Below are positions 1,706-30,035 of a stretch of DNA of 64,000 bases, piece by piece. The stretch's first letter is position 1. Every line of letters starts with the position of its first letter. Location: IMG/VR virus record IMGVR_UViG_3300025782_000009; one strand, written 5' to 3'. Under the pieces are notes generated by a model, which saw nothing but the letters and a program-made list of their open reading frames with translations, did no database searches and was not told the DNA's origin. This DNA is from a virus. Lineage: Duplodnaviria > Heunggongvirae > Uroviricota > Caudoviricetes. The translations under genes were made by a program, and so were the position numbers.

Positions 1706-1918
1706 ATGTTATTAAAAGCACGTTTCACAATAAATGTAGAAAAACTCAACGCTATCGTTGACCAGTACAACCAAACAAACGGCGTAGTTAAGTTTCTAAC
1801 TCAACCAGTATTTACTAGCAATAGCGAAGTAGTAGGCGAACAAAATGAGATTATGTTCTTTATCGGGTTTGTTGCAGGGCTCGGAGTACACGACCTTGAG
1901 CATGTAGCAAAGGCTTAA
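1706..1918 (+). CDS. Hypothetical early protein (70 aa)
   Basis: ORF with the upstream motif aaagggattcaaATG. It is the first gene of the plus-strand early operon. Confidence 0.5.
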   Translation: MLLKARFTINVEKLNAIVDQYNQTNGVVKFLTQPVFTSNSEVVGEQNEIMFFIGFVAGLGVHDLEHVAKA

Positions 1919-1919
1919 A

Positions 1920-1969
1920 GGTTAACTGACGAGACTTGAATAGTCGAAACCGCTCCGGCGGTCTTAACC
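1920..1969 (+). ncRNA. Hammerhead self-cleaving ribozyme, type I (copy 1)
   Basis: GGUUAA (stem I 5' strand), CUGACGA core, G, stem II GACU-ugaau-AGUC, GAA, A15.1, stem III CCGC-uccg-GCGG, U16.1, C17, then UUAACC (stem I 3' strand). All invariant core positions are present. The predicted cleavage site is after the GUC triplet, between 1963 and 1964. Confidence 0.7.
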
Positions 1970-1988
1970 AACTAAAAGGAATTTAAAA

Positions 1989-2303
1989 ATGATGGATTAT
2001 CTTTATATTGGCTCAACGCCACATGATGAGGATTGTGCCCAGGTAGGCTCAGAGGATTATGCCAACCGTGCTCGCGCAGAATGCCGGCTCTTTGCTTTGC
2101 AGATACTTAAACACTATCCCGAGCCCGAAAATGGTTATTTAAAAATAAAAGCTAACGCCCACGACTTTGGCACTTATTACGAAGTGGTAGCAGTTTATGA
2201 CGTAGAGGACGAAAAATCTACGAATTGGGCTTTTGATATTGAATCCGATACTTTGCAAGTACTGGCAAAGTGGGATGACGAACTACAACCACAAACCGCA
2301 TAA
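1989..2303 (+). CDS. Hypothetical early protein (104 aa)
   Basis: ORF preceded by the aaaaggaatttaaaaATG Shine-Dalgarno, 20 nt downstream of the hammerhead. Confidence 0.55.
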   Translation: MMDYLYIGSTPHDEDCAQVGSEDYANRARAECRLFALQILKHYPEPENGYLKIKANAHDFGTYYEVVAVYDVEDEKSTNWAFDIESDTLQVLAKWDDELQPQTA

Positions 2304-2314
2304 GGAATTACAAA

Positions 2315-2503
2315 ATGATAACACTATCAACCGAAACCCCTCAAAGCTACTTCACACCTAAACAAGCTCAATTTATTTGCTATCAAAACAATGCGGATGA
2401 GTTAGATGGTTGGACATACAAAGTAGAAGATGTAAACAACTCTAAAGGGTTATTAGTAATCCGTGTTTATGACGAAACCGGACACCCTTTGGGATATTTC
2501 TAA
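2315..2503 (+). CDS. Hypothetical early protein (62 aa)
   Basis: ORF with the coupling motif taaggaattacaaaATG. Confidence 0.5.
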   Translation: MITLSTETPQSYFTPKQAQFICYQNNADELDGWTYKVEDVNNSKGLLVIRVYDETGHPLGYF

Positions 2504-2555
2504 GGTCTACTGACGAGGCTTAATTAGCCGAAACCGCTCCCGGGCGGTATAGATC
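2504..2555 (+). ncRNA. Hammerhead self-cleaving ribozyme, type I (copy 2)
   Basis: GGUCUA, CUGACGA core, G, stem II GGCU-uaauu-AGCC, GAA, A, stem III CCGCUCCCGGGCGG, U, A17, then UAGAUC. Compensatory changes relative to copy 1 preserve stems I and II. The predicted cleavage site is after GUA, between 2549 and 2550. Confidence 0.65.
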
Positions 2556-2576
2556 AACTTAAAAGGAAATAATCAA

Positions 2577-2813
2577 ATGTATATACCAAAAAAAGCTTTT
2601 AAAGATATCAACGACCGATTAGAGCACGGCGATACTTATTTGGACTCAATCAAATACACCGCCTATTTTTACGGGTTCGAGCCCTCAGAGCTCCGCACGG
2701 CCTACGAGAAAAGAGCCTACCGCTCCGAGCTCCTTAGCAACACCGCAACCGCATTAGGAATGCTTGCAATTTTCCTTTGCCCGGTAATTTTCTATTTTGT
2801 TGCCAGGGGTTAA
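2577..2813 (+). CDS. Hypothetical early protein with C-terminal transmembrane segment (78 aa)
   Basis: ORF. The C-terminus ALGMLAIFLCPVIFYFVA is hydrophobic. An aaaaggaaataatcaaATG Shine-Dalgarno precedes it. Confidence 0.5.
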   Translation: MYIPKKAFKDINDRLEHGDTYLDSIKYTAYFYGFEPSELRTAYEKRAYRSELLSNTATALGMLAIFLCPVIFYFVARG

Positions 2814-16376: not shown

Positions 16377-17249
16377 CTCATGTGTTGCATGATACATTAA
16401 AAAAGATTCTTACCCTTGAACCTTCCTTCCCCGGTATTAGGGGCGAGGGGCAGATTCAAGGAACCTTTACGACAAACTCTGATCATCTTCGATCTTTCGG
16501 TAGAGCATACCGCTTCCTCTGAACTTATCGAGATAGCTAGGATGGTTGCCAGCTATTCGGGCATCTATTGCTAGAACTTCAGCGACTCTTGCGAGGTAGG
16601 TGTGTTTCCTTTTTACGGGATTTGTCTATATCCTGTTCGCTTTCGCTACTTAGACCAGCGGGTCACTGGGGCCGTTTTATGTTTTCTTCCGCGCAACCCA
16701 TATAGGTTCTTGCTAACGTGCGGAGTACGGCTGACGTATAAAGGTATAGATAATAAAAAAGCCGCTTAGCCATACATTCTGGTTACGGTCTATATCCTAT
16801 AAATACCACCGACTTATAGGATATAGCAGAATGTATGAGTAAACGGCTTACAACTAACTATTGCCCGTAACGACAACGGTTTTAGTATAGCAAATAACTT
16901 CAGGGCGTGTCAAACTAAGTAAAAATATTTGTAGTCTTGTCAATAAAAATAATGGAGTGCTACTGGCATAACTCCAACAAGAATGAGGACTGCCTTTGCT
17001 ACGGCGGCAGTCTCCAACCACCGCAGAGGTTTCCAGCCCCTGACAATCCTCATACTTGTTGGTGCGGGGTTGTTCACATAAAGCAGTGTTATCACAACTA
17101 AGGAGTACAAATTCACTTATCAACCGAGCCGGCGCTAACCCGACTTCAACCCCGCGCATCTAGTATACAAAAAAAATGGGGATGCCACACGACACCCCCA
17201 AAATCCATTCAACAGAAAGGAACTACAAATGAAAAAAACCAACTGAATT

Positions 17250-17613: not shown

Positions 17614-17642
17614 TTGACATTATTCAAAACAAGATATAACAT
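17614..17642 (+). promoter_or_regulatory. Sigma70-like promoter of the plus-strand recombination module (TTGACA-N17-TAACAT)
   Basis: Hexamers read directly. The first gene ATG is at 17675 with an aaaggaaacacaaATG Shine-Dalgarno. Confidence 0.45.
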
Positions 17643-17674: not shown

Positions 17675-17935
17675 ATGATTGATTTAAACGTAAGTCTTCG
17701 AGACTATTTCGCGGCTCATTGCCCGGACTCTGAACTCCCACAAAGTGTATCAGAGGGTGACATTATCAAGGCTTTGAATATGACACCGCAGAACGGCGAA
17801 CGGCTTGATCCTGAGTTTAGAAGGGCTGCCACAGTGCAGATCAGATGCTTGGCTAGGTATGCCTATGCCGATGCAATGCTAGCTGCTAGAGAGACAAAGG
17901 AGGATGCAGATGAAAGCATTTCCGAATCCGAATAA
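17675..17935 (+). CDS. Hypothetical protein (86 aa)
   Basis: ORF with a consensus Shine-Dalgarno. Confidence 0.5.
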   Translation: MIDLNVSLRDYFAAHCPDSELPQSVSEGDIIKALNMTPQNGERLDPEFRRAATVQIRCLARYAYADAMLAARETKEDADESISESE

Positions 17936-18095
17936 CACACAACAAGCCGGCATGGATCTGAGAGATTGGTTTGCAGGGCAAGTATTACCTAAGTTGATTG
18001 GTACTGCACCTATAAATTTAGCCGCACAGTCAGCTTATCGTTGGGCAGATGAAATGATGAAAGCGAGATCAAATGAAGATAACAAACAAGTTTAA
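17904..18095 (+). CDS. Hypothetical protein (63 aa)
   Basis: ORF overlapping its neighbours. Confidence 0.4.
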   Translation: MQMKAFPNPNNTQQAGMDLRDWFAGQVLPKLIGTAPINLAAQSAYRWADEMMKARSNEDNKQV

Positions 18096-18969
18096 TCTGC
18101 CAGAGACAATCCTAAACGTACTGGCTCGCCCTACCTATTCCAAAGGCAAGGCTAATATTTCGGCTACTGAATTGATCAATTCACCCCGTATCGTGCAGCT
18201 CAAAAGGAAGCACTGGGACGAGGTGGAGGAGGATGCAAGCTCTATGGTCTGGTCACTGTTTGGCTCTGCCGTTCACAATATCCTGGAGCACGGCAAGCAG
18301 GACAATCATATCGTTGAGGAACGAGTGCACATTACCCACGAGGGATGGCATATCTCCGGCGCAGTAGATCTTCAAGAGGTCTATGAGGACGGAATTGTTA
18401 TCAATGACTACAAGACCACTACCGCCTGGGCTGTACAAAACGACAAGCCGGAATGGGAAGAGCAGCTCAACATATACGCCTGGCTAATCCAGAAAGCTAA
18501 GAATAAACCCGTCAAGGGCTTGCGTATCGTAGCCATAGTGCGCGATTGGAGTCAAAGAGATGCCGTGAATAGGGAAGGCTATCCGCAAGCGCCTATCGTG
18601 ATCCTAGACCAGCAGCTATGGCCTTTTGAGAAGGCTGAACTGTTCATTGAGGAAAGACTAAAGGCACACGGCGAAGCTTACTTTGAATCCGAGACAGACG
18701 GTCAGCTGCCAGAATGTTCACCAGACGATATGTGGGAGAAGCCAACAACCTATGCCGTGATCAAAGTCGGTGGCAAGAGAGCTAAGTCAGTCCATTCCAC
18801 AAAGAGGGACGCGGAAGCAGACTTGGATACAGCCGGCAAAGGATACGAGATCCAGGTCAGACCAGGAGAACGGACACGGTGCAGCAGCTACTGCCAGGTC
18901 AATCAATGGTGCAGCCAGTACCACAAATATTTACAAGAAAACGCAATCGTTGAAGAGGCAATTGAATGA
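18073..18969 (+). CDS. PD-(D/E)xK exonuclease, Cas4/RecB-like, with a C-terminal Cys cluster
   Basis: AVDLQEVYEDGIVINDYKTT carries the D..E.K catalytic core. The C-terminal cysteines are CSPDD ... CSSYCQVNQWC. It is paired with the downstream ERF annealing protein. Confidence 0.7.
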   Translation: MKITNKFNLPETILNVLARPTYSKGKANISATELINSPRIVQLKRKHWDEVEEDASSMVWSLFGSAVHNILEHGKQDNHIVEERVHITHEGWHISGAVDLQEVYEDGIVINDYKTTTAWAVQNDKPEWEEQLNIYAWLIQKAKNKPVKGLRIVAIVRDWSQRDAVNREGYPQAPIVILDQQLWPFEKAELFIEERLKAHGEAYFESETDGQLPECSPDDMWEKPTTYAVIKVGGKRAKSVHSTKRDAEADLDTAGKGYEIQVRPGERTRCSSYCQVNQWCSQYHKYLQENAIVEEAIE

Positions 18970-20162
18970 AAAAAGTAATTCACGAAGCCGATTCCAGACC
19001 CATAAAGATCTGGACGGATGACGTAGAAGAGGAGGCGCTGACCCAGCTTAAGAACCTGGCAAGGCTGCCCTTTATCAACCATCACGGCGTAGTCTGTATG
19101 CCTGATGTTCATGCGGGCAAAGGATCGACCGTGGGAACGGTTATAGCTACCGAGAAGGCGATTATTCCTGCTGCTGTAGGCGTTGACATTGGTTGCGGCA
19201 TGAACGCTGTTAGAACGTCTTTAAAGGCTTCTGACTTGCCTGAATCTTTAAAGGATGTCCGTACCCAGATTGAGCGTGATGTTCCGCTGGGCGCAGGTGG
19301 TCGGGTTCAAGCAGCAATTGATATTGATGATCGCATGAAGCGCTTGCCAAAAACATCATTTGATCTTTGCACAAGGCTAAATGAGATTATCGGTGACTAC
19401 TGGAAAAAGGCTGCCCCACAACTTGGGACGCTTGGATCAGGTAACCACTTCATTGAGCTTTGTATTGATGAGAACCAGGATGTATGGGTAATGCTTCATT
19501 CTGGATCTCGCGGAATAGGAAACATGATTGGCTCTTACTACATTGAAAAAGCCAAGAAAACAATGGAGAAGTTCTTTATCCATCTGCCTGATTCTGACCT
19601 AGCCTATTTGCCAGAGGATACCGATGACTTTAATGAATACATGGATGCCGTGAGTTGGGCGCAGAGCTATGCATTGGAGAACCGCAAGCTAATGATGGAG
19701 ATTGTTTTGGATGCGCTCAGAAGGCATATTTCAAAAGAATTCACGATTACCCAAGAGGCGATCAATTGCCACCATAACTATGTAGAGAAGGAGAATCACT
19801 TTGGAAGAAACCTCTGGGTTACTCGTAAAGGAGCTATTCGTGCGAGATCCGGAGACCTTGGAATTATTCCAGGTTCGATGGGTCAAAAATCATATATTGT
19901 CCGTGGCAAGGGTGAGTTGCAATCCTATTGTTCTTGTTCGCACGGGGCAGGACGCAGTATGTCCAGAGCTGAAGCTAAAAGGCGCTTCAGTATTGATGAC
20001 CTCATTAAACAAACCGAAGGAGTAGAGTGCCGTAAGGATGCGGCAGTGATAGATGAAATCCCAGCTAGTTATAAAAACATAGATCAGGTAATGGCTAACC
20101 AAACAGATCTAGTCGAAGTAGTTCACACCCTAAAACAAGTAATGTGCGTCAAAGGCGCTTAA
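18966..20162 (+). CDS. rtcB: RtcB-family RNA 3'-phosphate ligase
   Basis: Conserved metal-site motifs GSGNHF, HSGSRG, NCHHNY and CSHGAGR are present. The length (398 aa) matches bacterial RtcB. Confidence 0.9.
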   Translation: MKKVIHEADSRPIKIWTDDVEEEALTQLKNLARLPFINHHGVVCMPDVHAGKGSTVGTVIATEKAIIPAAVGVDIGCGMNAVRTSLKASDLPESLKDVRTQIERDVPLGAGGRVQAAIDIDDRMKRLPKTSFDLCTRLNEIIGDYWKKAAPQLGTLGSGNHFIELCIDENQDVWVMLHSGSRGIGNMIGSYYIEKAKKTMEKFFIHLPDSDLAYLPEDTDDFNEYMDAVSWAQSYALENRKLMMEIVLDALRRHISKEFTITQEAINCHHNYVEKENHFGRNLWVTRKGAIRARSGDLGIIPGSMGQKSYIVRGKGELQSYCSCSHGAGRSMSRAEAKRRFSIDDLIKQTEGVECRKDAAVIDEIPASYKNIDQVMANQTDLVEVVHTLKQVMCVKGA

Positions 20163-21085
20163 AGGAAACACAAATGAGTTTATTTTTTATTGCAATTTTT
20201 TTATTAGCCGCCCCAATTGGCATTGGCTATGGTTTGTATATTTTTTCTTTGGCAGACGTAAGGGCTAGGAACTCAATGAGAGACAAACAAGTTCCTGAAC
20301 CAACGTTTAAGCCAACACTGCCAGCCGTTACAGGATTAGTCCTAATGCTTCTGTACATTAGTCTTGAATCCTACGTTATTGTTCCTGCCGGTCATATCGG
20401 CATTCAGGTGACGTTTGGCACGGTCAACCAGGAAACACTGGGCGAAGGCTTGCACCTGGTCAATCCATTGTCTAGCGTACAGAACCTGGACGTTCGTTTG
20501 GTATCTGCCAAGCTTGCGGGATCGGCCGCTGGGACTAAAGATCTACAGCAAGTACACACCGATATCGTTGTGAACTACCGTATCTCTGGCGACCGAGCAG
20601 CCCATATCTACAAGGAGTTTGGTTTAGATCTTCAGGATAAAGTGGTCATGCCTTTTGTCAACGAATCGTTCAAAGCCATTACCGCGCACTACACCAGCGA
20701 GGAGTTGATTACTAAGCGGGACGAGGTATCCGCAGGAATTAAGCAGGAGCTGTCAGACAAGCTGGGAAAGTACAACATTATTGTGAGCGATATCTCTTTG
20801 GTGAATTTCGGTTTCTCTGCCGAATACCAAAAGGCTATCGAGGCAAAGGTAATAGCAACGCAAAGCAAACTCCAGGCGGAGCAAGACCTAGCCAGGATTG
20901 AGGTAGAGGCTAAGCAGACTATTGCCAAGGCAGAGGGTCATGCAAAGGCTATCCAGATTGAGACGGCTGCAATCAACTCACAGGGAGGACAGTCATACGT
21001 TCAACTCAAAGCCATTGAGAAATGGAACGGTACTTTGCCTAGCACCATTGCCGGGGGCGCGACACCGTTCGTGAATCTGAAATGA
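20144..21085 (+). CDS. SPFH/Band-7 (prohibitin, HflK/C-like) membrane protein. The likely start is the MSLFF... ATG at 20174
   Basis: N-terminal transmembrane segment FFIAIFLLAAPIGIGYGLYIF, then an SPFH domain (NYRISGDRAAHIYKEFG ... FGFSAEYQKAIEAKVIATQ ... coiled coil). Confidence 0.8.
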   Translation: MRQRRLKETQMSLFFIAIFLLAAPIGIGYGLYIFSLADVRARNSMRDKQVPEPTFKPTLPAVTGLVLMLLYISLESYVIVPAGHIGIQVTFGTVNQETLGEGLHLVNPLSSVQNLDVRLVSAKLAGSAAGTKDLQQVHTDIVVNYRISGDRAAHIYKEFGLDLQDKVVMPFVNESFKAITAHYTSEELITKRDEVSAGIKQELSDKLGKYNIIVSDISLVNFGFSAEYQKAIEAKVIATQSKLQAEQDLARIEVEAKQTIAKAEGHAKAIQIETAAINSQGGQSYVQLKAIEKWNGTLPSTIAGGATPFVNLK

Positions 21086-21174
21086 CAGCATTCTGGTGGG
21101 ATTTAGCACAAACAGTCATTCCAATAGTCGCATTGATATTGGCAATATACATTTTTTTAAGGAGCATAACGTGA
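21082..21174 (+). CDS. Tiny single-pass membrane peptide (30 aa), coupled to the SPFH gene
   Basis: Hand-translated as MTAFWWDLAQTVIPIVALILAIYIFLRSIT. Its ATG overlaps the SPFH stop (ATGA) and its stop overlaps the next GTG start (GTGA). Confidence 0.3.
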   Translation: MTAFWWDLAQTVIPIVALILAIYIFLRSIT

Positions 21175-21362
21175 ACGAAAAGAAAGCAAAAGCCATTCGC
21201 AAGCAGGTTGGTTTTCATCCCGCAGACCCAAGAGGATATAAGGGAGGTAACAATTCCAAAAAAGCAGAATCTACTGGAACCGTTGCAGCCACAGGATCGA
21301 GAGCAGTCTATAACCAGGCAAAGAAACTAGCGGAGCAAATCAATGAACGATACACAGCTTAG
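21171..21362 (+). CDS. Small basic protein (63 aa) with a KGG motif, GTG start. The track ORF 21096..21362 is probably over-extended
   Basis: AAGGAG lies 6 nt before the GTG at 21171. The product VNEKKAKAIRKQVGFHPADPRGYKGGNNSKK... carries a KGG motif. Confidence 0.4.
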   Translation: MNEKKAKAIRKQVGFHPADPRGYKGGNNSKKAESTGTVAATGSRAVYNQAKKLAEQINERYTA

Positions 21363-21499
21363 ATGCACCGCCATGCAGTTCACACTTGATATTGTCAAGA
21401 TGATGGACGAGGCAGAAGTAATTAACGTTAGCCCACACGACTTTGGGGTAATCGTTAAAGGAGCAGAGAAGATTTATAACTTTTTAAAGGGAGATACAA

Positions 21500-21802
21500 A
21501 TGAAAATTGATTGGAACGATATAGACAAAAACAGAATCTTAATAGATATGGATTTAAATGAATGGGATTTTGTTAAGGCAGGAATCAAAGAAAAAGCAAA
21601 TAGGTTGCTTAGTAATTTTGATACTTGCTTAGATTACAGGCTTGAACAATTAAAAGAAAAACCAACACTAAAAGATGTTGATCCTGAGATCGTTGAAATA
21701 TTTAATAAAGAATATGCTGAGTTTAAAAACAAATCAAAAAAAGCACCATACGGTTATAAATTAGATGGCACGCCTAAGAAAAGACCAGGAAGAAAAGCAT
21801 GA
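21500..21802 (+). CDS. Hypothetical protein (100 aa)
   Basis: ORF with an aaagggagatacaaATG Shine-Dalgarno. Confidence 0.5.
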   Translation: MKIDWNDIDKNRILIDMDLNEWDFVKAGIKEKANRLLSNFDTCLDYRLEQLKEKPTLKDVDPEIVEIFNKEYAEFKNKSKKAPYGYKLDGTPKKRPGRKA

Positions 21803-21993
21803 AGCTTGCGGTAGGTGAGGACGAGTGGTATCCAGTATTTACTTTATGCGAAGCAGATTCTTTTGTATGGAAATATCACTTGTCTGAGTTTGTCGAAATT
21901 ACAGAGGAAGAATATAAGGATTACAAAGAAACTATGAACAAATTTGAAGAATGGCAATCAAAAATTAATAACCTAGAAAGGGTTAACAAATGA
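21799..21993 (+). CDS. Hypothetical protein (64 aa)
   Basis: ORF with ATGA coupling. Confidence 0.45.
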   Translation: MKLAVGEDEWYPVFTLCEADSFVWKYHLSEFVEITEEEYKDYKETMNKFEEWQSKINNLERVNK

Positions 21994-22712
21994 CAGTATT
22001 TAAAAAACTACAGAAGGCGCGGTCAGAAATAGCCCATAAGCCTCTCAAGAAATCCGGCAAGAACAAGTTTGCAGGATACGAGTATTTTGAGCTGGGAGAC
22101 TTCATCCCTACTGCTCACGATATATTTGACCAACTCGGATTGTGCGGAGTATTCAATATCAGCCTTGAGACTGCTACGCTTTGCATTCACGACACCGAGA
22201 CGGGCGAAGTGGTTCAATTCTCCTCGCCGACCGTTCTAGCAGAGAATGCCAAGGGACAGGCCATCCAGTCTATGGGTAGTACTCACACCTATTTCCGCCG
22301 TTACCTTTGGTTGATGGCGCTGGAGCTAACTGAGCACGATACAGTCGATGCAGCAGAGCCAACAGAAAAGAAACCAGAACCTAAGCCAAAAGTTGACGAG
22401 CAAATTGTTAAGTCATCTGTAGATCCGAAAACTGGCGAGATCAAACCACCCGCCAATATCGAGGGCAAAGGCGGGGAGTGGAACATCAAGATCAATGCTA
22501 AATCTACTGCAACAGCAGAAGACTGGGCAAATATTGTCTATGACGCAGCCATAATCTGCCTAGATACGGCTAAGAGCTTAGATGATGTGATGACCATATT
22601 CAGGGTCAACCGTCCTATCTTTGATCGTCTACGCGCCGATTCTGAGCCAGCCTACTCTAAATTAATGAACGAGTTTAAAAAGTACAAGGAGTCTTTCAAT
22701 GCCATCCCCTAA
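21990..22712 (+). CDS. ERF-family single-strand annealing protein (recombinase)
   Basis: KNKFAGYEYFELGDFIPTAHDIF and GSTHTYFRRYLWLMALEL match the P22 Erf blocks (NSFGKYKYRSCEDIL / TSSYARKYCLNGLFGI). Confidence 0.75.
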   Translation: MTVFKKLQKARSEIAHKPLKKSGKNKFAGYEYFELGDFIPTAHDIFDQLGLCGVFNISLETATLCIHDTETGEVVQFSSPTVLAENAKGQAIQSMGSTHTYFRRYLWLMALELTEHDTVDAAEPTEKKPEPKPKVDEQIVKSSVDPKTGEIKPPANIEGKGGEWNIKINAKSTATAEDWANIVYDAAIICLDTAKSLDDVMTIFRVNRPIFDRLRADSEPAYSKLMNEFKKYKESFNAIP

Positions 22713-22986
22713 TCAATACCCCAATTCAGGAACCCTGAACATTAACAAGTTTAAAAAGGAGGGAGACAAGTCCCCCAATTTAAACGGTGAATTAAAGATG
22801 GAGCGCAGCGCTTTAAAACAGCTGCTGGACGAGCAGGGCGATGAAATTAGTATCAAGATATCAGCCTGGACGATGCCGGATTACGGTCACGGCAAATGGC
22901 TTAGGCTTGCCTGGAACAACTATAAATTGGAAAAGCCGGCTTCTCCGAAACAGCAATCCATAGAAGATGAAGACATCCCCTTCTGA
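22699..22986 (+). CDS. Small SSB-like protein with a C-terminal acidic DIPF tail
   Basis: It ends ...SIEDEDIPF, the hallmark SSB C-terminal tip (DDDIPF). The N-terminal part only weakly resembles an OB fold. Confidence 0.5.
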   Translation: MPSPNQYPNSGTLNINKFKKEGDKSPNLNGELKMERSALKQLLDEQGDEISIKISAWTMPDYGHGKWLRLAWNNYKLEKPASPKQQSIEDEDIPF

Positions 22987-23408
22987 TGGAAACGCTACAG
23001 TTTGAGGGAGTAAAGGTCGCATTAAAGCAGGATAAAACCGGCTATATGCTGACCTTGAACGTACACCCGGACGAGATACCAGACCAGCTGATGCGTGACT
23101 TTGTAGGAGCCAGGTATCAGGTGGTAATGGTACGTCTTGACGGAAATGAGAAACCCATGAACCGGGAACAGGAATACTCCCCAGACATGGTTAGATCATC
23201 CGCAATACTGTGCCGCGATCCAAGCTTTTGGAAGTTCTTGGTTGAAACCAATCAGACCTTTGACGCAAGCGAGGAAACGGCTACAGCATGGCTAAAGCAA
23301 GAACTAGGAATTGAATCCAGGACGGAGCTTAAAACAAACAAAGAGGCTGCAAGCCAGTACAAATTTATATTTAAGGAGTTCCAATCATGGAAGCAAGCAA
23401 ACGGTTAA
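22986..23408 (+). CDS. Hypothetical protein (140 aa)
   Basis: ORF with ATGA coupling. Confidence 0.5.
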   Translation: METLQFEGVKVALKQDKTGYMLTLNVHPDEIPDQLMRDFVGARYQVVMVRLDGNEKPMNREQEYSPDMVRSSAILCRDPSFWKFLVETNQTFDASEETATAWLKQELGIESRTELKTNKEAASQYKFIFKEFQSWKQANG

Positions 23409-23668
23409 TTCCGTACAGCGTACATCTCACCCCAGAGATATACGATAAGCTGAAAGAGCTAGCCCAGGAGCGTAAAGCTTCTAAGCTGGTTCGGGATGCC
23501 ATTACAATGATCTTAAATGGCAAGGGAGACTTTGACAGCGGATACGACAAAGGTATTATGGATGCTATAGATATAGTCGCAAATAATACCGTTGCAAACA
23601 AGATATCCTATGAAGAGGACACCATTGCAGATGCGATCATTGACCAACTGGAGATGTTACTGAAATGA
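23387..23668 (+). CDS. Ribbon-helix-helix (CopG/Arc-like) DNA-binding protein
   Basis: The N-terminus RLIPYSVHLTPEIYDKLKELAQERKASKLVRDAITMIL fits a beta-strand then two helices, as in an RHH fold. Confidence 0.55.
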   Translation: MEASKRLIPYSVHLTPEIYDKLKELAQERKASKLVRDAITMILNGKGDFDSGYDKGIMDAIDIVANNTVANKISYEEDTIADAIIDQLEMLLK

Positions 23669-23674
23669 GAAACG

Positions 23675-24049
23675 GTGCACTGGTATTTAAAGGCAAGATG
23701 TTCCGGTGCACCCATTGTGGTATCAAGTGGGCTTCTATCGAACCGGCAGAGGCTCACATCTGTGAAGAACGAAATGCAAAGCAAGAACAAGAAACCACCA
23801 ACCGCATCAGAGAAGAAACACATCCAGAGGGTAAAGGAGATGCCATGTATCATATGCGGCGCATCCTCACCGAGCGATTGCCACGAGATTAAACAGGGTC
23901 AGTGGTTTACTTCTATCCCGCTATGCCGGGATTGCCACATGGGCAGCCACAACGGCATACATGGTCGTAAAGCTATATGGAATGTAAAGCGCCTAGACGA
24001 ACTAGACGCATTAGCCCTCACTATCGAAAAGCTTATAACTGAGCCATAG
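23675..24049 (+). CDS. Small HNH-type endonuclease-like protein. The real start may be internal (about 23844); it overlaps the alternative ORF 23665..23892
   Basis: CIICGASSPSDCHEIKQGQWFTSIPLCRDCHMGSHNG has the pattern CxxCG ... DCHEI ... LCxxCH. Confidence 0.45.
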   Translation: MHWYLKARCSGAPIVVSSGLLSNRQRLTSVKNEMQSKNKKPPTASEKKHIQRVKEMPCIICGASSPSDCHEIKQGQWFTSIPLCRDCHMGSHNGIHGRKAIWNVKRLDELDALALTIEKLITEP

Positions 24050-27000
24050 CACGAAGCTTCTTAATATTTATATTCTTTAAGATCAGCTCTTCTTGTTTGT
24101 GTAGATTCTCAATCTGCTTTTCTTTCTTGTCCGGATCCATGTTCGGCTTGTTGCTGATAATGGCTATAGCGTTTTGGATGTTAGATAGATTCTTAGCTAT
24201 CTTATCTATATCGCTATGCATACCAACCCGCATCTGGTGCTCTTTTGACTTCATGTAATCAGCCGCCTCGCTTGGGGTGCGCTTCTTAATATCATTGAAC
24301 GTAGCAGATGCTTTGTCTACTTCATCCTTCAGAATATAGAAGTCACGTTTCAAGCCGGTCTGGTTTTCCTTGGATATAAATCCACTAGATCCTGGGACAG
24401 AGGCAAGCACATCATGCCAGCCAATCGTAGGTCTTTCTACATTTGGATCTGTGTGCAGGATTGGATTGGTCAGCATAAGCGTTAGACCGCCAACAGAACC
24501 AAACATACCGCGGATGATATGGTCAGCGTTGATAGGCGCAATCAACCCGGTCTTACCAAGTACCTTACCAAGCTCAGATGTTGAGTCATTGAACTGCCTG
24601 GATACATCCTCCTTCAGCATGAACGGATTGATCAGGTTGCGGTTCTGGAAAAAGTCATAGTTCAGTGCAACTTCAACTGCTGGCTTGATAGCCTGGGGAA
24701 CAGGAGTAGGAGCCATCAAAGATGAAGTCAAAGCTGATGCCATTGAATCTCTAAACTTACGCCCGTCTTCTGTAGCGTTGTTGGTCATCAATAAATACAG
24801 GTGCTCTGTAATGATCTTTGGAATGGTAAAGACATCGTTCCTGAGTGGAATGCTGAGACCGCCAGATCCAGGGATCATTAGCAGTCTATCCCGTACAGTC
24901 GTTGGCTTCTTTAGGTAGTCATCATCGTCACCGTTCATCATTGCGTACAGCAAAGATAAAGCCATAACAGATCCGGTAGTCATAGCAAGGGTTTGTAATC
25001 CTGCCTTCCTCTCGGTCGGGGATATGCCCTCGCCGGTAATGGTTTTGAATGCTACGTTTTGAACAGCAAGGTAGGCATTGAAGAACGGTATAACTTGGCT
25101 AACTACGCGCAGGGTGGTAGATGTACCCCTCCTACGCACGTTAAACACCTCAAAGGCTTTCTCAATAGCCTCACCGCGGGTCAGTCCTGCCGATACAGAT
25201 GCCTCGTATACAGCTTGTCTAACAGCGTTATCTGATGCCATAGAGATATGCTTGAGCATACCTTTGACCTTGCCCCATCCGCCTGGTGGTGGTTTAACGC
25301 CGGCATAAACCTCAGCATCTCTACGCGCCAGATCAGATGTAAAGTCTGTATATCCTACAGCTCTGTACTTCTTAAGCTCCTCATGGGTTGTACTGGTACG
25401 TCTAAGCGTCTTAACAAACTCCTTGGCTGCAAGCGCAGGGATTCTCAGGGCGTACTGTGGAGACAAGCCGGACGTAAAGATAGCGGAGAACGCATCTTGT
25501 GGTACTTGGCTGACCGCAAAGAGCGGGTTCATTACAACAGATTCTCTAAGGATGTTTGCAAACTTGGAGAAGAACTTAACAGTAGGAACAGATACCGCCT
25601 GGATACCGGCAAAGGCATCTACAAAGAGCGGATCCTTCATGTCGTAAAACTCTTCCTTACCATCTCTCCAAATGCGAACCACGTTAGCATTCTTAATGGG
25701 ATGAGGAATCTTCTTAGCTATACCAAGGCTTTCCAAGTCCTTGCTCATAGCTGTATCAATCATCGCCTTAGCCTGGGAGTTTCTGATGGAACGGTTATAT
25801 GAATACTCGATCCACTTCGCCATGTTGTCCACGATATTGGCAACTGGTCTTTCAGATCCGGTCATCTTGAACTCTCTGGCTTTAACCATCAAGCCGGATA
25901 GATAGTTCTTATCTCCGCCTTTAGCCTCTTCCTCCTCGAACTCGCGCTGGAACGGAACGTAGTCAATGTTTGACATCATCTGCTCTGCGTACTCTTCACT
26001 CCACAGACCAGACTCAACCAGAGCGTCCTTAGCGTTGTTTCTCATGCCCTGCCAGATATCCACAGTATCTTGCAGCTCAGGCATAGACTTAAAGAAATCA
26101 AGACCTGTAGCAATCTGCTCGTCCGATAGATGAATAAGCTTTGGCTTTTGCTTGGCAAGATTCTCAAACCTAGAGATAGCAGCCTTCACTTCTGCCCTCT
26201 GCGCCTTGGTATCAGGATCATTCCCGGTCAGGCTGTTCAGTAGTTCATTGAGAGCCTCGATCTCTTCAGGAGCGCTGGCAATAGATGCGTTGAAGTCTTT
26301 CAGCGACTGGGTACGTCTAGCCTCAAACGCCATGTGCGTAACAAGCTCTGCCTCCTGGTACGTCATGTTGTACTTATTGGCAAACTCACTAATTGATTTA
26401 ATAAGTTCTTTTAAGTTGTATCTATCCTTTACAACCTCCCACTTCTGAACATCATCATCGTATCCCAGCTTTCCATCAAGCAGTGCACCATTGGCAACAA
26501 TATCAGCACCAACAGCTTGGCTGGTACTGATATTAAGCCGGTTTCTAACCTTATCACTCATCTCGCCATCCGCTTGCATGATGCCGCGTTTGATGTTGTT
26601 ATTGAATGCAGAGTCACTGCTAAATATCCAGGTCTGTATCTTGTCAGAGAACTTGGTAGCAGCTTTTTTGGCATCTTCTATAGCCATGCCAGGATTGTCT
26701 ATAGCGTTATCCCAGTAGCTCTTAAGGTTCTCGTAGAAACTCTTTGGTTGCTCTTCTACTTCACGACCCATATCCCTTAATGAATCAAGTGCATCTCTGC
26801 CCGCGCCAGTGGCTTGACTTGGCTGGATTGGAGATTCCTCTGCGGTCATCTTTGGATTTGATTTCAGCCTTCCCGGAGGGGCTTGAGGAGTAGTTGGAAC
26901 ACCTAATGTGTACCCTTTCTTTTCCAGATCTTTAGCAATCTCTAGCGCTGGATTTTCAAACATATCAGTAGATATTCTGATTAATCTATCCAATGCTGTT

Positions 27001-30000
27001 TCGTATTCTGGAGATAAATTTAAAACCTTACGGACAAACTCCATCAATTTATCAAGAGCAGTCTTATTGCCAACTTTAATTCCAGCCAAATATTTCTGCA
27101 TTGCAGGATCGGTCAATCCTTGCGTAATAAACTCAGCATAGAAATCACCCTCTACACCTGTTGATTTTTTAAAGGCATAATTAATTGAGAATTCATCTCT
27201 AATATATTTGCCTTCTTTCTTGTCCTTTCTCCATTGTTTATGAACAAGCTTTCTTAAATCATCTAATTCTTTTACGAGAGGATTATCTGTGCCAAGGAAT
27301 TTAATTTCCGCCAAAGAAATAAGATGTATAAATTCATGCGCTAAGACTTCAAAAGTAGAACCCTTCTCGCCATTAATTTCCATTATGAAATTTATTTTCC
27401 CAAGACCTGAAGGACTAAATACTCTACCCAAAGATGAACGTTTTTTATTCATTACATATTTGGTAGAAAAAGTCATTGGTACGCCGCGGCGATCAAACTC
27501 TTGTACTTTGCGAAGAATGTGTTCAGCTATTCCTTTGTGATATGAGTCATGCGCTATATCAACTAAAATCTGCGCTGCCTCAACAATATTTTTACCATTT
27601 AACCTTTTAAGCAATTCTGCTTTGCTCAACTGAGGCTTTTGGAAAAAAGTATCTTTTGTTGGCGGCTCATCTGGAGGAGTAAATAAATCTTTCTCTCCTT
27701 CAAATGCCTTTTTAAACACCTCATCCAGCGAGCGTTTGGGAACTTCCCCGAACATATCTGTGTCTGTTCTGTTGTGCTCTTCAAGCGCGGCATTAGCTAA
27801 GTTATTTAATCCTTCGGTAATCTTCTTACCCGACCTGCCAGAGTCTGCAAACATTTGAAGAATTCTTTGGGTATAAGGATTAGTCCCTATATCCATTTGC
27901 TTAGCCATATCTTCAAGCGGTATATTTCTACGCCTTGCATTAACCGCTGCTTCTGCGGCTTGGGTTACATAAGGACGGATATCGTACTCTCCAGCGCCAT
28001 CAAGCTGCGCCATCTTAGGAGCAACGGTTCCAAGTGAATTTAATACAAGTCTTGACTCAGCATCCCTGGTTGGCCCATACAGATTAATTAACTGCTCATT
28101 GCCATATGCCTTCCAAAACACAGCATTCATCAAACGATCTTCTGCTTTCTTTGAAGGCTGACCAAACAAGTCCTTTAAATCAGGATGCTCTGATACCGGC
28201 ATCGCATTAACAAAGTCCCGCAATGAATCAATATGCGGATCACCGTTATCATAAAATTTCAAAGAATTAATATCTATTCGGTTGGCATCTTGTTTGGCTG
28301 AATCAATAGCTGACAAACCAGAGATACCAGATACGTTTGATATATCACCAATGTTAGGCGTAATAAAAGACTTAGGCATCACCCGCACCAACACGGGCTG
28401 CTTCATGTCCGCAATAGTCTTGGGATCAATGCCGTGGGCTGCATCGTTAACCAACTCTTCCTTGTACTTGCCAGCTGTTCCGCGCTGATAAGCCTCTTGT
28501 ATACCTGCTACACGACCATTACCCGCAACCGGGCGAATAGCAGAGACAGATAAATCCTGGTACTCAGCATTCTTTGTGCCATCATGGGAATGAGATGGTA
28601 GCAATTCATGTGCATCAACAACTGCATACCTAACTGGAATCTTTGTTCCGTCAGATGCTGTGGTCATCTCATAGTTTCCAAGCTGGTTTTCGTTTAGCTT
28701 CTCATCGGTCATAACCACTGGAGCGCCAGAACCAAAACTGCGAGATATGCTTAAATCGTTATATCTTGGATTAGCTGCAACACCTTGCATTTGCTGAATA
28801 GATGCATCTGTAGATCTGTCTCTATTTTGAAAGACCGTACTGGATGCGTCTGGCAACCCTTGGTGGTAATTCTCAAAGTGCTGAGACAAGTCTGGATTTG
28901 CACCTGGCGCAACATTTCCCGGTGGAGTAGTAGGAGGATTGACCGGAGGCGTGGCAGGTGGAGTCTCAGGAGCAGCTGGAGGAGCGGGCGGAGTAGTACC
29001 CGGCTTTTGTGCGGCTGCTGGCTTCTGAAGCAAACCCATACCACCGGCAGTACCAATAGCACCAATACCCGCCTGGGCAGCAGTGCGTCCAAGATTCTCT
29101 GTTAACTCTGCATTAGGATCTACCTGTTGCTGAGCTACGTTCTGAGCAAGCTGTCCACCAACTTCCTCAATCTCTTCACTGGGTAGCTCACCAAGGGCGA
29201 GACCTGCTGCATTACGCAACCTACCTGCTTTACCTGCTTTACCTGCCAATGCCTCAGCAAACCTGTGTCCGCCTGGTAGATTCTGAGCGCCAAGGGATAT
29301 AGCTGCACCTGCAACACCAGTAGCCCTAGCGTACTTCAATGCTCTTTCTTTAGCCTCGTCCTCTGGTACGCCATCAGCAATCATCTTGTCATAGGTTGCT
29401 TTGTATACCTGTGCACCTACGTCAGAGCCTTGCTGTAAAGCACCAGTACCGATAGCAGCCCGTGCGCCAGACTTAACGGCAGCAGCTTGAGCAGCTTCAG
29501 CAGCAGCCTTCTCGGCAGCAGTACCTACGGCTTTCCTAGCGGCAGCTCTAGATGCGGCAACAGCAGGAGATAGTTCAGGAGCAGCAATAGCAGCAATAAT
29601 AGCCGGCAATTGTTCAGGTAACTGCTGGGCAATAAAGTTAAGACCAAGACCAAATGGGTCTTTGATTGTCTCTAATGCTTCACGACCAAGGGCGCTGAGC
29701 TGTCCACTCTTTTCCGCTTCTTTGACCTTCTCTTCTTTGAGTTGTTCCCTAGCTTTTAAACCAGGAGACTTCATCTCTTCGCCGTACTGTTGCAGCTTAT
29801 TACCAATAGCCATTACGCCGGTATCGGAGAAATCTCCAGTAGCCAGACCATACATCTGCGGTACAAACTTAGCTGCACCACCAACGCCAGATACTAATCC
29901 AGCACCAATGTCCGTTGCAGCCTGACCAAACGTCCTGCTTGTATCAGGAGCTTTGGGTGGCGGCGGAGCGGGTAGATCAGAAATGTCTACTGGTCTAGGC

Positions 30001-30035
30001 TTGGTAGGATCCGGTAAATCGCTAATATCAATCAT
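24033..30035 (-). CDS. Giant virion-associated or ejection protein (2000 aa) with a zincin-like HExxH motif, Ala-rich and Pro-rich N-terminal segments
   Basis: A continuous 6-kb ORF at the end of the late operon. FEVLAHEFIHLISLAE contains HExxH. Features include an N-terminal DISDLP repeat, an Ala/Gly-rich helix region and a PPAPPAAPETPPATPPVNPPTTPP linker. Confidence 0.8.
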   Translation of the reverse strand: MIDISDLPDPTKPRPVDISDLPAPPPPKAPDTSRTFGQAATDIGAGLVSGVGGAAKFVPQMYGLATGDFSDTGVMAIGNKLQQYGEEMKSPGLKAREQLKEEKVKEAEKSGQLSALGREALETIKDPFGLGLNFIAQQLPEQLPAIIAAIAAPELSPAVAASRAAARKAVGTAAEKAAAEAAQAAAVKSGARAAIGTGALQQGSDVGAQVYKATYDKMIADGVPEDEAKERALKYARATGVAGAAISLGAQNLPGGHRFAEALAGKAGKAGRLRNAAGLALGELPSEEIEEVGGQLAQNVAQQQVDPNAELTENLGRTAAQAGIGAIGTAGGMGLLQKPAAAQKPGTTPPAPPAAPETPPATPPVNPPTTPPGNVAPGANPDLSQHFENYHQGLPDASSTVFQNRDRSTDASIQQMQGVAANPRYNDLSISRSFGSGAPVVMTDEKLNENQLGNYEMTTASDGTKIPVRYAVVDAHELLPSHSHDGTKNAEYQDLSVSAIRPVAGNGRVAGIQEAYQRGTAGKYKEELVNDAAHGIDPKTIADMKQPVLVRVMPKSFITPNIGDISNVSGISGLSAIDSAKQDANRIDINSLKFYDNGDPHIDSLRDFVNAMPVSEHPDLKDLFGQPSKKAEDRLMNAVFWKAYGNEQLINLYGPTRDAESRLVLNSLGTVAPKMAQLDGAGEYDIRPYVTQAAEAAVNARRRNIPLEDMAKQMDIGTNPYTQRILQMFADSGRSGKKITEGLNNLANAALEEHNRTDTDMFGEVPKRSLDEVFKKAFEGEKDLFTPPDEPPTKDTFFQKPQLSKAELLKRLNGKNIVEAAQILVDIAHDSYHKGIAEHILRKVQEFDRRGVPMTFSTKYVMNKKRSSLGRVFSPSGLGKINFIMEINGEKGSTFEVLAHEFIHLISLAEIKFLGTDNPLVKELDDLRKLVHKQWRKDKKEGKYIRDEFSINYAFKKSTGVEGDFYAEFITQGLTDPAMQKYLAGIKVGNKTALDKLMEFVRKVLNLSPEYETALDRLIRISTDMFENPALEIAKDLEKKGYTLGVPTTPQAPPGRLKSNPKMTAEESPIQPSQATGAGRDALDSLRDMGREVEEQPKSFYENLKSYWDNAIDNPGMAIEDAKKAATKFSDKIQTWIFSSDSAFNNNIKRGIMQADGEMSDKVRNRLNISTSQAVGADIVANGALLDGKLGYDDDVQKWEVVKDRYNLKELIKSISEFANKYNMTYQEAELVTHMAFEARRTQSLKDFNASIASAPEEIEALNELLNSLTGNDPDTKAQRAEVKAAISRFENLAKQKPKLIHLSDEQIATGLDFFKSMPELQDTVDIWQGMRNNAKDALVESGLWSEEYAEQMMSNIDYVPFQREFEEEEAKGGDKNYLSGLMVKAREFKMTGSERPVANIVDNMAKWIEYSYNRSIRNSQAKAMIDTAMSKDLESLGIAKKIPHPIKNANVVRIWRDGKEEFYDMKDPLFVDAFAGIQAVSVPTVKFFSKFANILRESVVMNPLFAVSQVPQDAFSAIFTSGLSPQYALRIPALAAKEFVKTLRRTSTTHEELKKYRAVGYTDFTSDLARRDAEVYAGVKPPPGGWGKVKGMLKHISMASDNAVRQAVYEASVSAGLTRGEAIEKAFEVFNVRRRGTSTTLRVVSQVIPFFNAYLAVQNVAFKTITGEGISPTERKAGLQTLAMTTGSVMALSLLYAMMNGDDDDYLKKPTTVRDRLLMIPGSGGLSIPLRNDVFTIPKIITEHLYLLMTNNATEDGRKFRDSMASALTSSLMAPTPVPQAIKPAVEVALNYDFFQNRNLINPFMLKEDVSRQFNDSTSELGKVLGKTGLIAPINADHIIRGMFGSVGGLTLMLTNPILHTDPNVERPTIGWHDVLASVPGSSGFISKENQTGLKRDFYILKDEVDKASATFNDIKKRTPSEAADYMKSKEHQMRVGMHSDIDKIAKNLSNIQNAIAIISNKPNMDPDKKEKQIENLHKQEELILKNINIKKLRAMAQL

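Follow-up and report, generated by a model that had tools for sequence, protein, structure and literature searches.

Our analysis of the window, the whole 64,000-nt stretch of DNA studied here, indicated that the ORF at 18966-20162 (+ strand) encodes a full-length RtcB, an RNA ligase predicted to join 3'-phosphate or 2',3'-cyclic-phosphate ends to 5'-OH ends, and that the active site of the enzyme is intact. The gene is a stand-alone accessory cassette that occupies a variable slot and not a part of the recombination machinery. We infer its substrates, its early expression and its role; the reading that we favor, and consider reasonably probable, is that the ligase reseals RNAs cut by host ribotoxins and would thus act in counter-defense.

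The ORF starts at ATG and encodes a product of 398 aa followed by a stop codon. The protein matched the Pfam RtcB profile PF01139 from end to end (positions 1-426 of 426), with E=2e-130 and a score of 436 bits (cut-off 27), and it also matched the PHROG 1075 family, 'tRNA splicing ligase' (E=9e-155). All four motifs on which the initial annotation had based a full-length RtcB, GSGNHF, HSGSRG, NCHHNY and CSHGAGR, were found at residues 157-162, 178-183, 267-272 and 324-330, respectively, together with DIGCG at residues 74-78. Ligases of the RtcB family depend on GTP and Mn2+ and act through a covalent His-GMP and then an RNA(3')pp(5')G intermediate, which is followed by attack of the 5'-OH. Alignment to P. 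horikoshii RtcB (D74=D95, C77=C98, N160=N202, H161=H203, H178=H234, H270=H329 and H326=H404) revealed that the ligands of the two-metal site (D74, C77, N160, H161, H178 and H270) are all present, with none of the metal-binding Cys, His and Asn residues lost, and that the His-GMP nucleophile is retained as H326 of the CSHGAGR motif, which corresponds to His404 of the P. horikoshii enzyme. The metal ligands and the nucleophile were invariant in 81/81 phage RtcB homologues. The dN/dS values for these homologues were 0.05-0.15, and phage rtcB is under purifying selection. The AlphaFold2 model of the protein was of only moderate quality (pLDDT 65, pTM 0.66); in a Foldseek search of this model against the PDB, the best 16 matches were all RtcB structures (E 9e-17 to 5e-13, TM 0.57-0.64), and the first match after them fell to E=0.08.

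The window derives from a tailed phage and encodes a helicase, a primase, a methyltransferase, an ejection protein and a tail fiber; the phage is of freshwater origin. The rtcB gene lies in a rightward operon of + strand genes that spans 17675 to 24049, and no + strand terminator-like site was found within it. A sigma-70-like promoter candidate (17614..17642, +; TTGACA-17-TAACAT, 10/12 matches) is located directly upstream of the first + strand gene of this operon; it is a consensus match alone, and the match count is no higher than the shuffled expectation. Judging from this match, transcription of the operon probably starts here and probably occurs early.

The neighbors that the initial annotation had assigned to rtcB, a Cas4-like exonuclease and an SPFH protein, were correct. 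Upstream, a PD-(D/E)XK (Cas4-like) exonuclease is encoded at 18073..18969 (+; PF12705, E=3e-9; phrog_2139 exonuclease, E=4e-49; weak Cas4 matches), and the TGA stop codon of its gene overlaps the ATG of rtcB (ATGA at 18966-18969); translation of rtcB is probably coupled to that of the nuclease gene ahead of it. Downstream, the gene for an SPFH/Band 7 membrane protein (20174..21085, +; PF01145, E=3e-32) begins 12 nt past the rtcB stop codon; its start is probably the ATG at 20174, which is the start annotated on public contigs of identical sequence. SPFH homologues were also located within 2.1 kb of rtcB in 7/80 phage loci compared with 1/149 control loci (p=0.003), and SPFH is a recurrent but non-obligate neighbor of phage rtcB. 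The actual recombination pair consists of the PD-(D/E)XK nuclease and an ERF single-strand annealing protein encoded at 21990..22712 (+; PF04404, E=2e-12; phrog_155, E=4e-24). No RNA-repair partner (archease, RtcA, Pnkp, PrfH or Ro) was found in the operon, in the early region or among the recurrent neighbors of 80 phage rtcB loci, and PADLOC gave no match for either RtcB or SPFH.

The initial annotation had described rtcB as lying inside the recombination module, which is true of its position but not of its membership. In the nearest relative, L179 (IMGVR_UViG_3300032605_000012; helicase 93%), an HNH_3+AP2 homing endonuclease gene takes the place of rtcB between the PD-(D/E)XK and SPFH genes, and homology between the two phages resumes exactly at the final base of the rtcB stop codon. 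This replacement of rtcB by a homing endonuclease gene in one slot shows that rtcB is exchangeable cargo. Moreover, rtcB was found in 0/80 lineage relatives, about 30 of which have the PD-(D/E)XK/ERF module. In other relatives rtcB was located before the nuclease gene, after it or in a different operon. The neighbors of phage rtcB were not conserved, the commonest family being present in 8/80 loci, and a search for DNA nearly identical to the rtcB region among deposited phages returned no match.

Phage-encoded RtcB is already known, is common and has its own PHROG family; we found it in 710/50,697 deposited phage records. PHROG 1075 includes Bordetella phage PHB04 gp041, Burkholderia phage FLC9 gp272 and the RtcBs of Caulobacter phiCbK-like phages and Cluster K1 mycobacteriophages, and the present protein resembles them in its domain, its length of about 400 aa, its catalytic residues and its proposed role (PMC3203893, PMC7824862). 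The identity between PHB04 gp041 and the present RtcB was 74%. As in PHB04 and FLC9, the closest cultured homologues, rtcB stands alone among small early or accessory genes; unlike in those phages, it is wedged between the exonuclease and SPFH genes, and no synteny of the neighborhoods was found. We also considered a cellular rtc operon as the host source of the gene. The closest 'cellular' homologues (about 76% identical; Burkholderia and Cupriavidus) proved to be prophage genes accompanied by an integrase and NinX, with neither rtcR nor rtcA next to them, and a host origin was rejected because of this prophage location. The present RtcB belongs to a clade of RtcBs of about 400 aa that is carried by phages and prophages and circulates among phages of Burkholderiales-type hosts. 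In one relative, rtcB immediately follows an NAD-salvage gene pair, and in one rtcB-bearing prophage a HEPN RNase gene is located 1.2 kb from rtcB.

At least one tRNA gene was located within 10 kb of rtcB in 23/80 phage loci (29%), compared with 4/69 and 5/80 control loci (p about 3e-4). This enrichment was about 6-fold and persisted for contigs under 80 kb, although part of it may reflect which phage types harbor the gene. In PHB04, three tRNAs and a permuted tmRNA lie 3-4 kb from rtcB. Unlike these 29% of loci, the present locus has no tRNA genes near rtcB; our tRNA gene search of the 64-kb window detected none, and the association is therefore not directly applicable to the present phage. 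That tRNA genes, and not ribozymes, accompany phage rtcB points experiments toward tRNA repair.

What the analysis shows is the identity of the ligase, its intact active site, the purifying selection, its accessory status and the statistical tie between phage rtcB and tRNA genes. In the counter-defense role that we favor, metal-independent host RNases (anticodon nucleases, HEPN or colicin-like ribotoxins and toxin-antitoxin RNases) would cut RNAs during infection and leave 2',3'-cyclic-phosphate and 5'-OH ends, and RtcB would reseal these host or phage RNAs, tRNAs above all and possibly rRNA or mRNA. Resealing would keep translation going and would in this way counter the defense. To our knowledge, there has been no genetic test of any phage RtcB. 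An analogy in proposed function is offered by phage T4, in which a phage enzyme likewise reseals host tRNA cut by an abortive-infection RNase; the proteins and chemistry are unrelated, and the present RtcB is not a member of that family. T4 repair consists of end-healing followed by the action of an ATP-dependent 3'-OH/5'-P ligase, whereas RtcB joins raw ends directly with GTP. The T4 enzymes Pnkp and Rnl1 repair tRNA-Lys after its cleavage by the PrrC anticodon nuclease (PMC4933390). Counter-defense, which the initial annotation had also proposed, is the standard published view, the idea that phage RtcB counters host RNases having been in the literature since 2011 (PMC3203893, PMC7824862), and it fits the tRNA gene enrichment. 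Further indirect support comes from the variable slot and from the NAD-salvage and HEPN genes beside rtcB in relatives. Deletion of the host rtcB had no effect on the plating of one Pseudomonas phage (PMC4933390), which argues that phages do not generally benefit from RtcB during infection.

The present RtcB has its family and chemistry in common with E. coli RtcB, which is encoded in the rtcBA operon for RtcR/sigma-54 regulated RNA repair and joins 3'-P or 2',3'-cyclic-P ends to 5'-OH via His-GMP (PMC7790460). Unlike rtcBA, the present rtcB is phage-borne and lies behind a sigma-70-like promoter candidate, and both the RtcA cyclase and the RtcR (CARF, sigma-54) regulator are absent from its operon and from the early region. 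Its score against the NCBIfam equivalog PRK09588 was 192 bits, under the cut-off of 407.

Repair of rRNA in place of tRNA seems to us unlikely, although it would have a parallel in the bacterial RtcB2-PrfH module for ribosome rescue and repair, which reverses colicin E3-type 16S rRNA cuts and sets an RtcB-family ligase against a ribotoxin (PMC9304027). The present enzyme is of the same family as RtcB2 and reached 157.5 bits against NCBIfam TIGR03073 'release_rtcB'; however, this score is under the model cut-off of 271.8, and no PrfH-like gene was found in the rtcB operon or among the recurrent neighbors of phage rtcB.

The two hammerhead ribozymes mentioned in the initial annotation were recovered as type I hammerheads on the + strand, HH1 at 1920..1969 with predicted cleavage after C1963 and HH2 at 2504..2555 with predicted cleavage after A2549. 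Both have a full core (CUGANGA ... GAAA ... UH) and three stems (6, 4 and 5-6 bp), and they scored 68.3 bits (E=6e-19) and 60.8 bits, respectively, against a covariance model built in this study. HH2 is intergenic; it immediately follows a stop codon, and the next Shine-Dalgarno sequence comes about 20 nt further on. HH1 and HH2 bracket a two-gene RNA of 586 nt (1964-2549). A search pattern of the core and stem III yielded 69 contigs, in all of which stems I and II were also present; the chance rate of the scanner was 1 match per 100 shuffled windows. In an alignment of 66 sequences, 268 cells were changed on both sides of a pair compared with 67 in shuffles, and pairing was 99% in register compared with about 33% when the partner columns were slid. 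HH1 and HH2 are real and belong to a hammerhead family that is widespread among phages. Rfam matched neither of them at its gathering score: HH1 reached 26.3 bits to RF03152 (gathering 56.3), and HH2 was not reported. Both are minimal forms of about 50 nt, and this compact family, missed by the Rfam thresholds, is widespread in phage early operons. Matches to MIR6217, AniS, BSR0709 and isrG, obtained when the Rfam thresholds were relaxed, were dismissed because they are hairpins or terminators that score far below the gathering scores. The proteins of the hammerhead operon matched no Pfam family. A blastn search with ten concatenated members of the hammerhead family against the 50,697 phage records returned no match.

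Cleavage at HH1 and HH2, which have the same orientation, is predicted to release an RNA with a 5'-OH and a 2',3'-cyclic phosphate, that is, with ends that RtcB could join, and on this chemistry the initial annotation had suggested a functional link. RtcB would then circularize the 586-nt RNA or rejoin the cleaved early mRNA and reverse the cleavage. Were it true, circular, exonuclease-resistant mRNA would constitute a new layer of phage gene expression, reversal of the cleavage would be a means of tuning early gene expression, and bacterial viruses would have a natural equivalent of retrozyme or 'Tornado' circularization. RNA circularization by ribozymes and RtcB has been described for animal retrozymes and for engineered twister-flanked 'Tornado' RNAs (PMC7229834); the present phage resembles these in having two same-strand self-cleaving ribozymes and an RtcB in one genome, with predicted ends that are RtcB-compatible. 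Hammerheads and RtcB also occur together in HF1-group haloviruses (PMC7230728, PMC3088659), and some other phage contigs carry hammerhead pairs with an identical stem I, a geometry that would be favorable to a circle.

However, rtcB and the hammerheads are 16.4 kb apart in separate operons, and, unlike in the retrozyme and 'Tornado' systems, ribozymes and RtcB are not co-inherited in relatives. No RtcB was found in 0.6 Mb around the hammerheads of the 69 contigs, the 1.46 Mb surrounding 88 other phage rtcB genes contained no hammerhead, and the two sets have zero contigs in common. PaP3 and Bcep176 have hammerheads without RtcB, PHB04 has RtcB without a hammerhead, and L179 retains the hammerhead pair even though its syntenic rtcB slot is occupied by the HNH gene. 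Stem I of HH1 and HH2 is at best partly cross-complementary: the 5' strand of HH2 (GGUCUA) and the 3' strand of HH1 (UUAACC) pair at 4/6 positions, so the ends of the excised 586-nt RNA may be poorly juxtaposed. Minimum-free-energy folding of the circle junction did not discriminate. The layout of HH1 and HH2 is one known from phages, in which hammerheads flank blocks of genes and a part in mRNA processing has been proposed for them; Perreault et al. sought circles and spliced RNAs derived from such phage arrays but detected neither (PMC3088659). Our literature search found no published link between phage RtcB and hammerheads and no 'anti-defense' RtcB. Thus, hammerheads and phage rtcB appear to assort independently, and the relatives give a functional link no support: it is chemically possible, yet the comparisons across 69 hammerhead loci, 88 rtcB loci and L179 all show independence. 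We consider action of RtcB on the phage's own hammerhead products highly improbable, and circularization of hammerhead-released mRNAs unlikely.

Still less probable is a role on DNA, in which RtcB would join DNA ends that carry a 3'-phosphate, or cap them with guanylate, while the phage recombines or repairs its DNA. RtcB can guanylylate DNA 3'-PO4 ends, which yields DNA3'pp5'G caps (PMC4381079, PMC4499129), and in the present lineage rtcB repeatedly adjoins the genes for the PD-(D/E)XK exonuclease and ERF, although the gene order varies. The recombination module, however, does not need rtcB, because the relatives mentioned above have the nuclease/ERF pair alone; in addition, the rtcB slot accepts unrelated cargo (the HNH/AP2 gene), and outside this lineage rtcB is located near tRNAs or unrelated small genes and not near recombination genes.

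Maturation of phage-encoded RNAs (split, permuted or intron-containing tRNAs or tmRNA) in place of counter-defense has a similarly slim chance: it would suit the tRNA genes enriched at phage rtcB loci and the permuted tmRNA near PHB04 rtcB, but no tRNA, tmRNA or other Rfam family was found in the 64-kb window, and the ORF-free region upstream of the rtcB operon resembles a promoter with leader hairpins and not a substrate RNA. This region of 0.9 kb was rejected as a candidate substrate of RtcB; its + strand fold was ordinary (z=-1.7). The fold of its - strand was stronger (z=-5.3) and is due to a pair of terminator-like hairpins that lie downstream of a good match to a promoter, a strong one, and we therefore read it as a putative leader.

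The rtcB gene (18966-20162, + strand; ATG start, 398 codons) was correctly identified and is an ordinary gene of an already known kind. The initial annotation described a full-length RtcB; the ORF lies where it was placed, all of the motifs quoted for it were found, and its product covered the whole Pfam PF01139 (RtcB) profile (E = 2e-130) and matched PHROG 1075, "tRNA splicing ligase" (E = 9e-155). The best NCBIfam match was to the exteins of an intein-containing RtcB family; the protein itself has no intein. Aligned with solved structures of the family (P. horikoshii 1uc2/4dwr, T. thermophilus 2epg, and human RTCB), the protein retains its metal ligands and its guanylylated histidine, D74, C77, N160, H161, H178, H270, and H326 corresponding to D95, C98, N202, H203, H234, H329, and H404 of the P. 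horikoshii enzyme, respectively. These seven catalytic positions were invariant in 81 of 81 sequences (MAFFT alignment of the window protein and 80 phage homologues), with no loss of metal-binding Cys, His, or Asn residues, and the pairwise dN/dS against relatives (0.05-0.15) revealed selective constraint. An AlphaFold2 model, whose quality was moderate (pLDDT 65, pTM 0.66), was compared with the PDB; the top 16 matches were all RtcB (E = 9e-17 to 5e-13), and the next match had E = 0.08. Since the catalytic residues are conserved and the fold search returned only RtcB, the window protein is an intact RtcB.

The gene is the fourth in a + strand operon (17675 to 24049) that follows a sigma-70-like promoter match (17614-17642, + strand; consensus match) and in which no + strand terminator-like site was found. 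Both neighbors named in the initial annotation were borne out: the ATG of rtcB overlaps the TGA of a PD-(D/E)XK/Cas4-like exonuclease gene (ATGA, 18966-18969), and an SPFH/Band 7 gene (20174-21085) starts 12 nt past the rtcB stop; a gene for an ERF annealing protein starts further downstream, at 21990. The window also contains helicase, primase, methyltransferase, DNA-ejection protein, and tail fiber genes of a tailed phage, and the identical RtcB protein is found on recorded contigs of up to 75 kb from freshwater-lake metagenomes. Convergent with the operon is a gene (24033-30035, - strand) for a 2000-aa protein with ddrB-ParB and LPD38 domains according to public gene calls, which is conserved in related phages. 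Upstream of the leftward operon, an ORF-free stretch (16380-16913, - strand; fold z-score -5.3) contains a strong match to a sigma-70-like promoter (TTGACA-18-TATACT with TG, 16913-16884), downstream of which are two hairpins with a U-run each, one long and perfect (16849-16759) and the other at approximately 16470-16413; this stretch resembles an extended leader containing terminator or antiterminator structures. Beyond the window, the same phage carries a large terminase gene with an intein (L085, 2148-4529; PF14890 and Terminase_6C, 793 aa).

Although rtcB was placed inside a recombination module by the initial annotation, and the position is right, the gene is exchangeable cargo in a variable slot and belongs to the module by position only. 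None of 80 loci around helicase homologues of this lineage (70-99% identity, 1.04 Mb) contains rtcB, though approximately 30 include PD-(D/E)XK and ERF genes. In L179, the contig of the nearest relative (IMGVR_UViG_3300032605_000012; helicase 93%), the gene order is PD-(D/E)XK, a 174-aa HNH_3+AP2 homing-endonuclease gene, SPFH, and ERF, and DNA homology with the window restarts exactly at 20162, the final base of the rtcB stop codon. The order is shuffled among relatives that carry rtcB (rtcB-SPFH-nuclease-ERF, rtcB-nuclease-SPFH, and nuclease-rtcB), some of which have the gene in a different small-gene operon. When every ORF up to 5 kb from rtcB was counted across 80 phage loci, no conserved partner emerged; the commonest family was present at 8 loci and the SPFH family at 7. 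The SPFH/Band 7 gene is no more than 2.1 kb from rtcB, upstream or downstream, at 7 of the 80 phage loci (L092, L100, L104, L107, L131, L159, and L160; 27-77% identity) versus 1 of 149 controls (p = 0.003). HF1-group haloviruses also contain both genes. That RtcB joins or caps DNA 3'-phosphate ends during recombination is a less supported reading, for which the activity itself has been documented (PMC4381079, PMC4499129).

The proposed mechanism is that of an active stand-alone ligase, probably expressed early from a host-type promoter, which would repair RNAs after cleavage by host RNases of the metal-independent kind and thereby serve counter-defense. Such cuts leave 2',3'-cyclic-phosphate and 5'-OH ends. 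The identity, active site, selective constraint, and accessory nature of rtcB were demonstrated; its substrates, timing of expression, and part in counter-defense are inferred. A search of the operon and the early region for RtcA, RtcR, archease, Pnkp, and PrfH genes found none. Maturation of phage RNAs by RtcB is less supported, as is rRNA repair in the style of RtcB2-PrfH, against which stand an NCBIfam score under the cut-off and the absence of PrfH. Across phage rtcB loci, tRNA genes were present within 10 kb at 23 of 80 (88 genes, 6.9 per 100 kb), compared with 4 of 69 hammerhead loci (0.8 per 100 kb) and 5 of 80 loci of the helicase lineage (1.25 per 100 kb) as controls; the Fisher p was approximately 3e-4, or 0.007 without contigs of at least 80 kb. 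This association fits an RNA-repair role centered on the translation apparatus; it is not directly applicable to the window phage because the window has no tRNA gene. The genome of Bordetella phage PHB04 contains, in a stretch 3-4 kb downstream of rtcB (L175, 45118-46341), three tRNA genes along with a permuted tmRNA (RF04321, 104.5 bits); the feature table of the record has no entry for them in that stretch.

A tblastn search detected RtcB in 710 of 50,697 deposited phage records, including mycobacteriophages and Listeria, Bacillus, Caulobacter, Halorubrum, and Pseudomonas phages; the best match, in PHB04 (74% identity), was already annotated as "tRNA splicing ligase". Phage RtcB was proposed in 2011 to protect from host tRNA cleavage (PMC3203893), and a comparative survey regards it as a means of repairing RNA in the face of metal-independent RNases (PMC7824862). 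The nearest "cellular" homologues (approximately 76%; Burkholderia and Cupriavidus) sit in prophages with an integrase, NinX, and arrays of small early genes, with no rtcR or rtcA beside rtcB; because these are prophage genes, the clade of approximately 400 aa is phage-borne. The Cupriavidus campinensis prophage (L172, 7662-8855) has a HEPN_Toprim_N/HEPN_RiboL-PSP gene on the strand opposite to rtcB, 1.2 kb away. Proteins with HEPN domains are usually metal-independent RNases, and RtcB could join the ends that their cuts would produce. At another locus (L009, 7679-11197; RtcB 81% identical), a PRPP-synthetase-like gene and a NAMPT gene directly precede rtcB, an NAD-salvage pair of a kind implicated against NAD-depleting defenses.

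The two hammerheads invoked by the initial annotation exist. Our motif scan, which gave 1 match per 100 dinucleotide-shuffled windows, identified type I hammerheads at 1920-1969 (HH1) and 2504-2555 (HH2), both on the + strand; the core is complete in each, and the stems are 6, 4, and 5-6 bp long. Both were missed by Rfam at gathering scores. They occupy intergenic gaps of a small-gene operon, with a stop codon directly before and a Shine-Dalgarno sequence approximately 20 nt after, and their cleavage is predicted to release a 586-nt RNA with two genes. A DNA pattern of the core and stem III only matched 69 viral contigs (fewer than 1 expected by estimate), and stems I and II were also present in 69 of 69. 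Covariation was strong, both sides of a pair having changed in 268 cells versus 67 in shuffles. The stems were paired 99% in register versus approximately 33% with partner columns slid, a percentage inflated because the scanner partly selected the stems; the compensatory changes are unaffected. This compact (approximately 50-nt) family spans at least 69 IMG/VR viral contigs (L016-L084), in which small-gene operons often contain an array of 2-4 copies on one strand. [quoted passage not shown]

A functional link between RtcB and these ribozymes, considered conceivable in the initial annotation, was not upheld: in every test the two were independent. With flanks of up to 10 kb, no RtcB was found around the hammerheads of the 69 contigs (0.6 Mb), and no hammerhead in 1.28 Mb around the 80 phage rtcB genes (strict scanner) or in 1.46 Mb of rtcB surroundings (family covariance model R1, built from 66 sequences), and the two sets share no contig. 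The model scored the window copies at 68 and 61 bits; the next-best match (19 bits) lacked stems II and III. Other ribozyme classes were covered by Rfam scans of the window, PHB04, and PaP3, and the remaining RtcB loci by the hammerhead scanner and model only. The complete genomes of PaP3 and Bcep176, whose hammerheads are experimentally validated (PMC3088659), contain no RtcB, and that of PHB04, which has RtcB, contains no hammerhead by Rfam or our model. L179 keeps a hammerhead pair (66 and 50 bits) with the HNH gene in the rtcB slot, and in the window rtcB and the hammerheads are 16.4 kb apart in separate operons. Each stem I (HH1 GGUUAA/UUAACC, HH2 GGUCUA/UAGAUC) pairs with its own partner, and pairing across the would-be circle junction occurs at only 4 of 6 positions. 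Because HF1-group haloviruses carry both RtcB and a hammerhead (PMC7230728, PMC3088659), the two do co-occur, though not systematically. Action of RtcB on hammerhead products is less supported, and RtcB-dependent circularization of the released mRNA is very improbable.

The hammerhead-bounded cassettes are permuted between the window (1706-2813) and L179 (17589-19106). The window has orf1989 and orf2315 between HH1 and HH2, and in L179 the order is orf2315-like gene, hammerhead, orf1989-like gene, hammerhead, the copies being 392 nt apart; these ribozymes may serve as boundaries at which recombination shuffles the cassettes. The HH2 cleavage triplet (2547-2549) is GUA in the window, whereas strain variants of this phage (L043 and L075) have GUC; both triplets are allowed at a hammerhead cleavage site, where H is any base except G.
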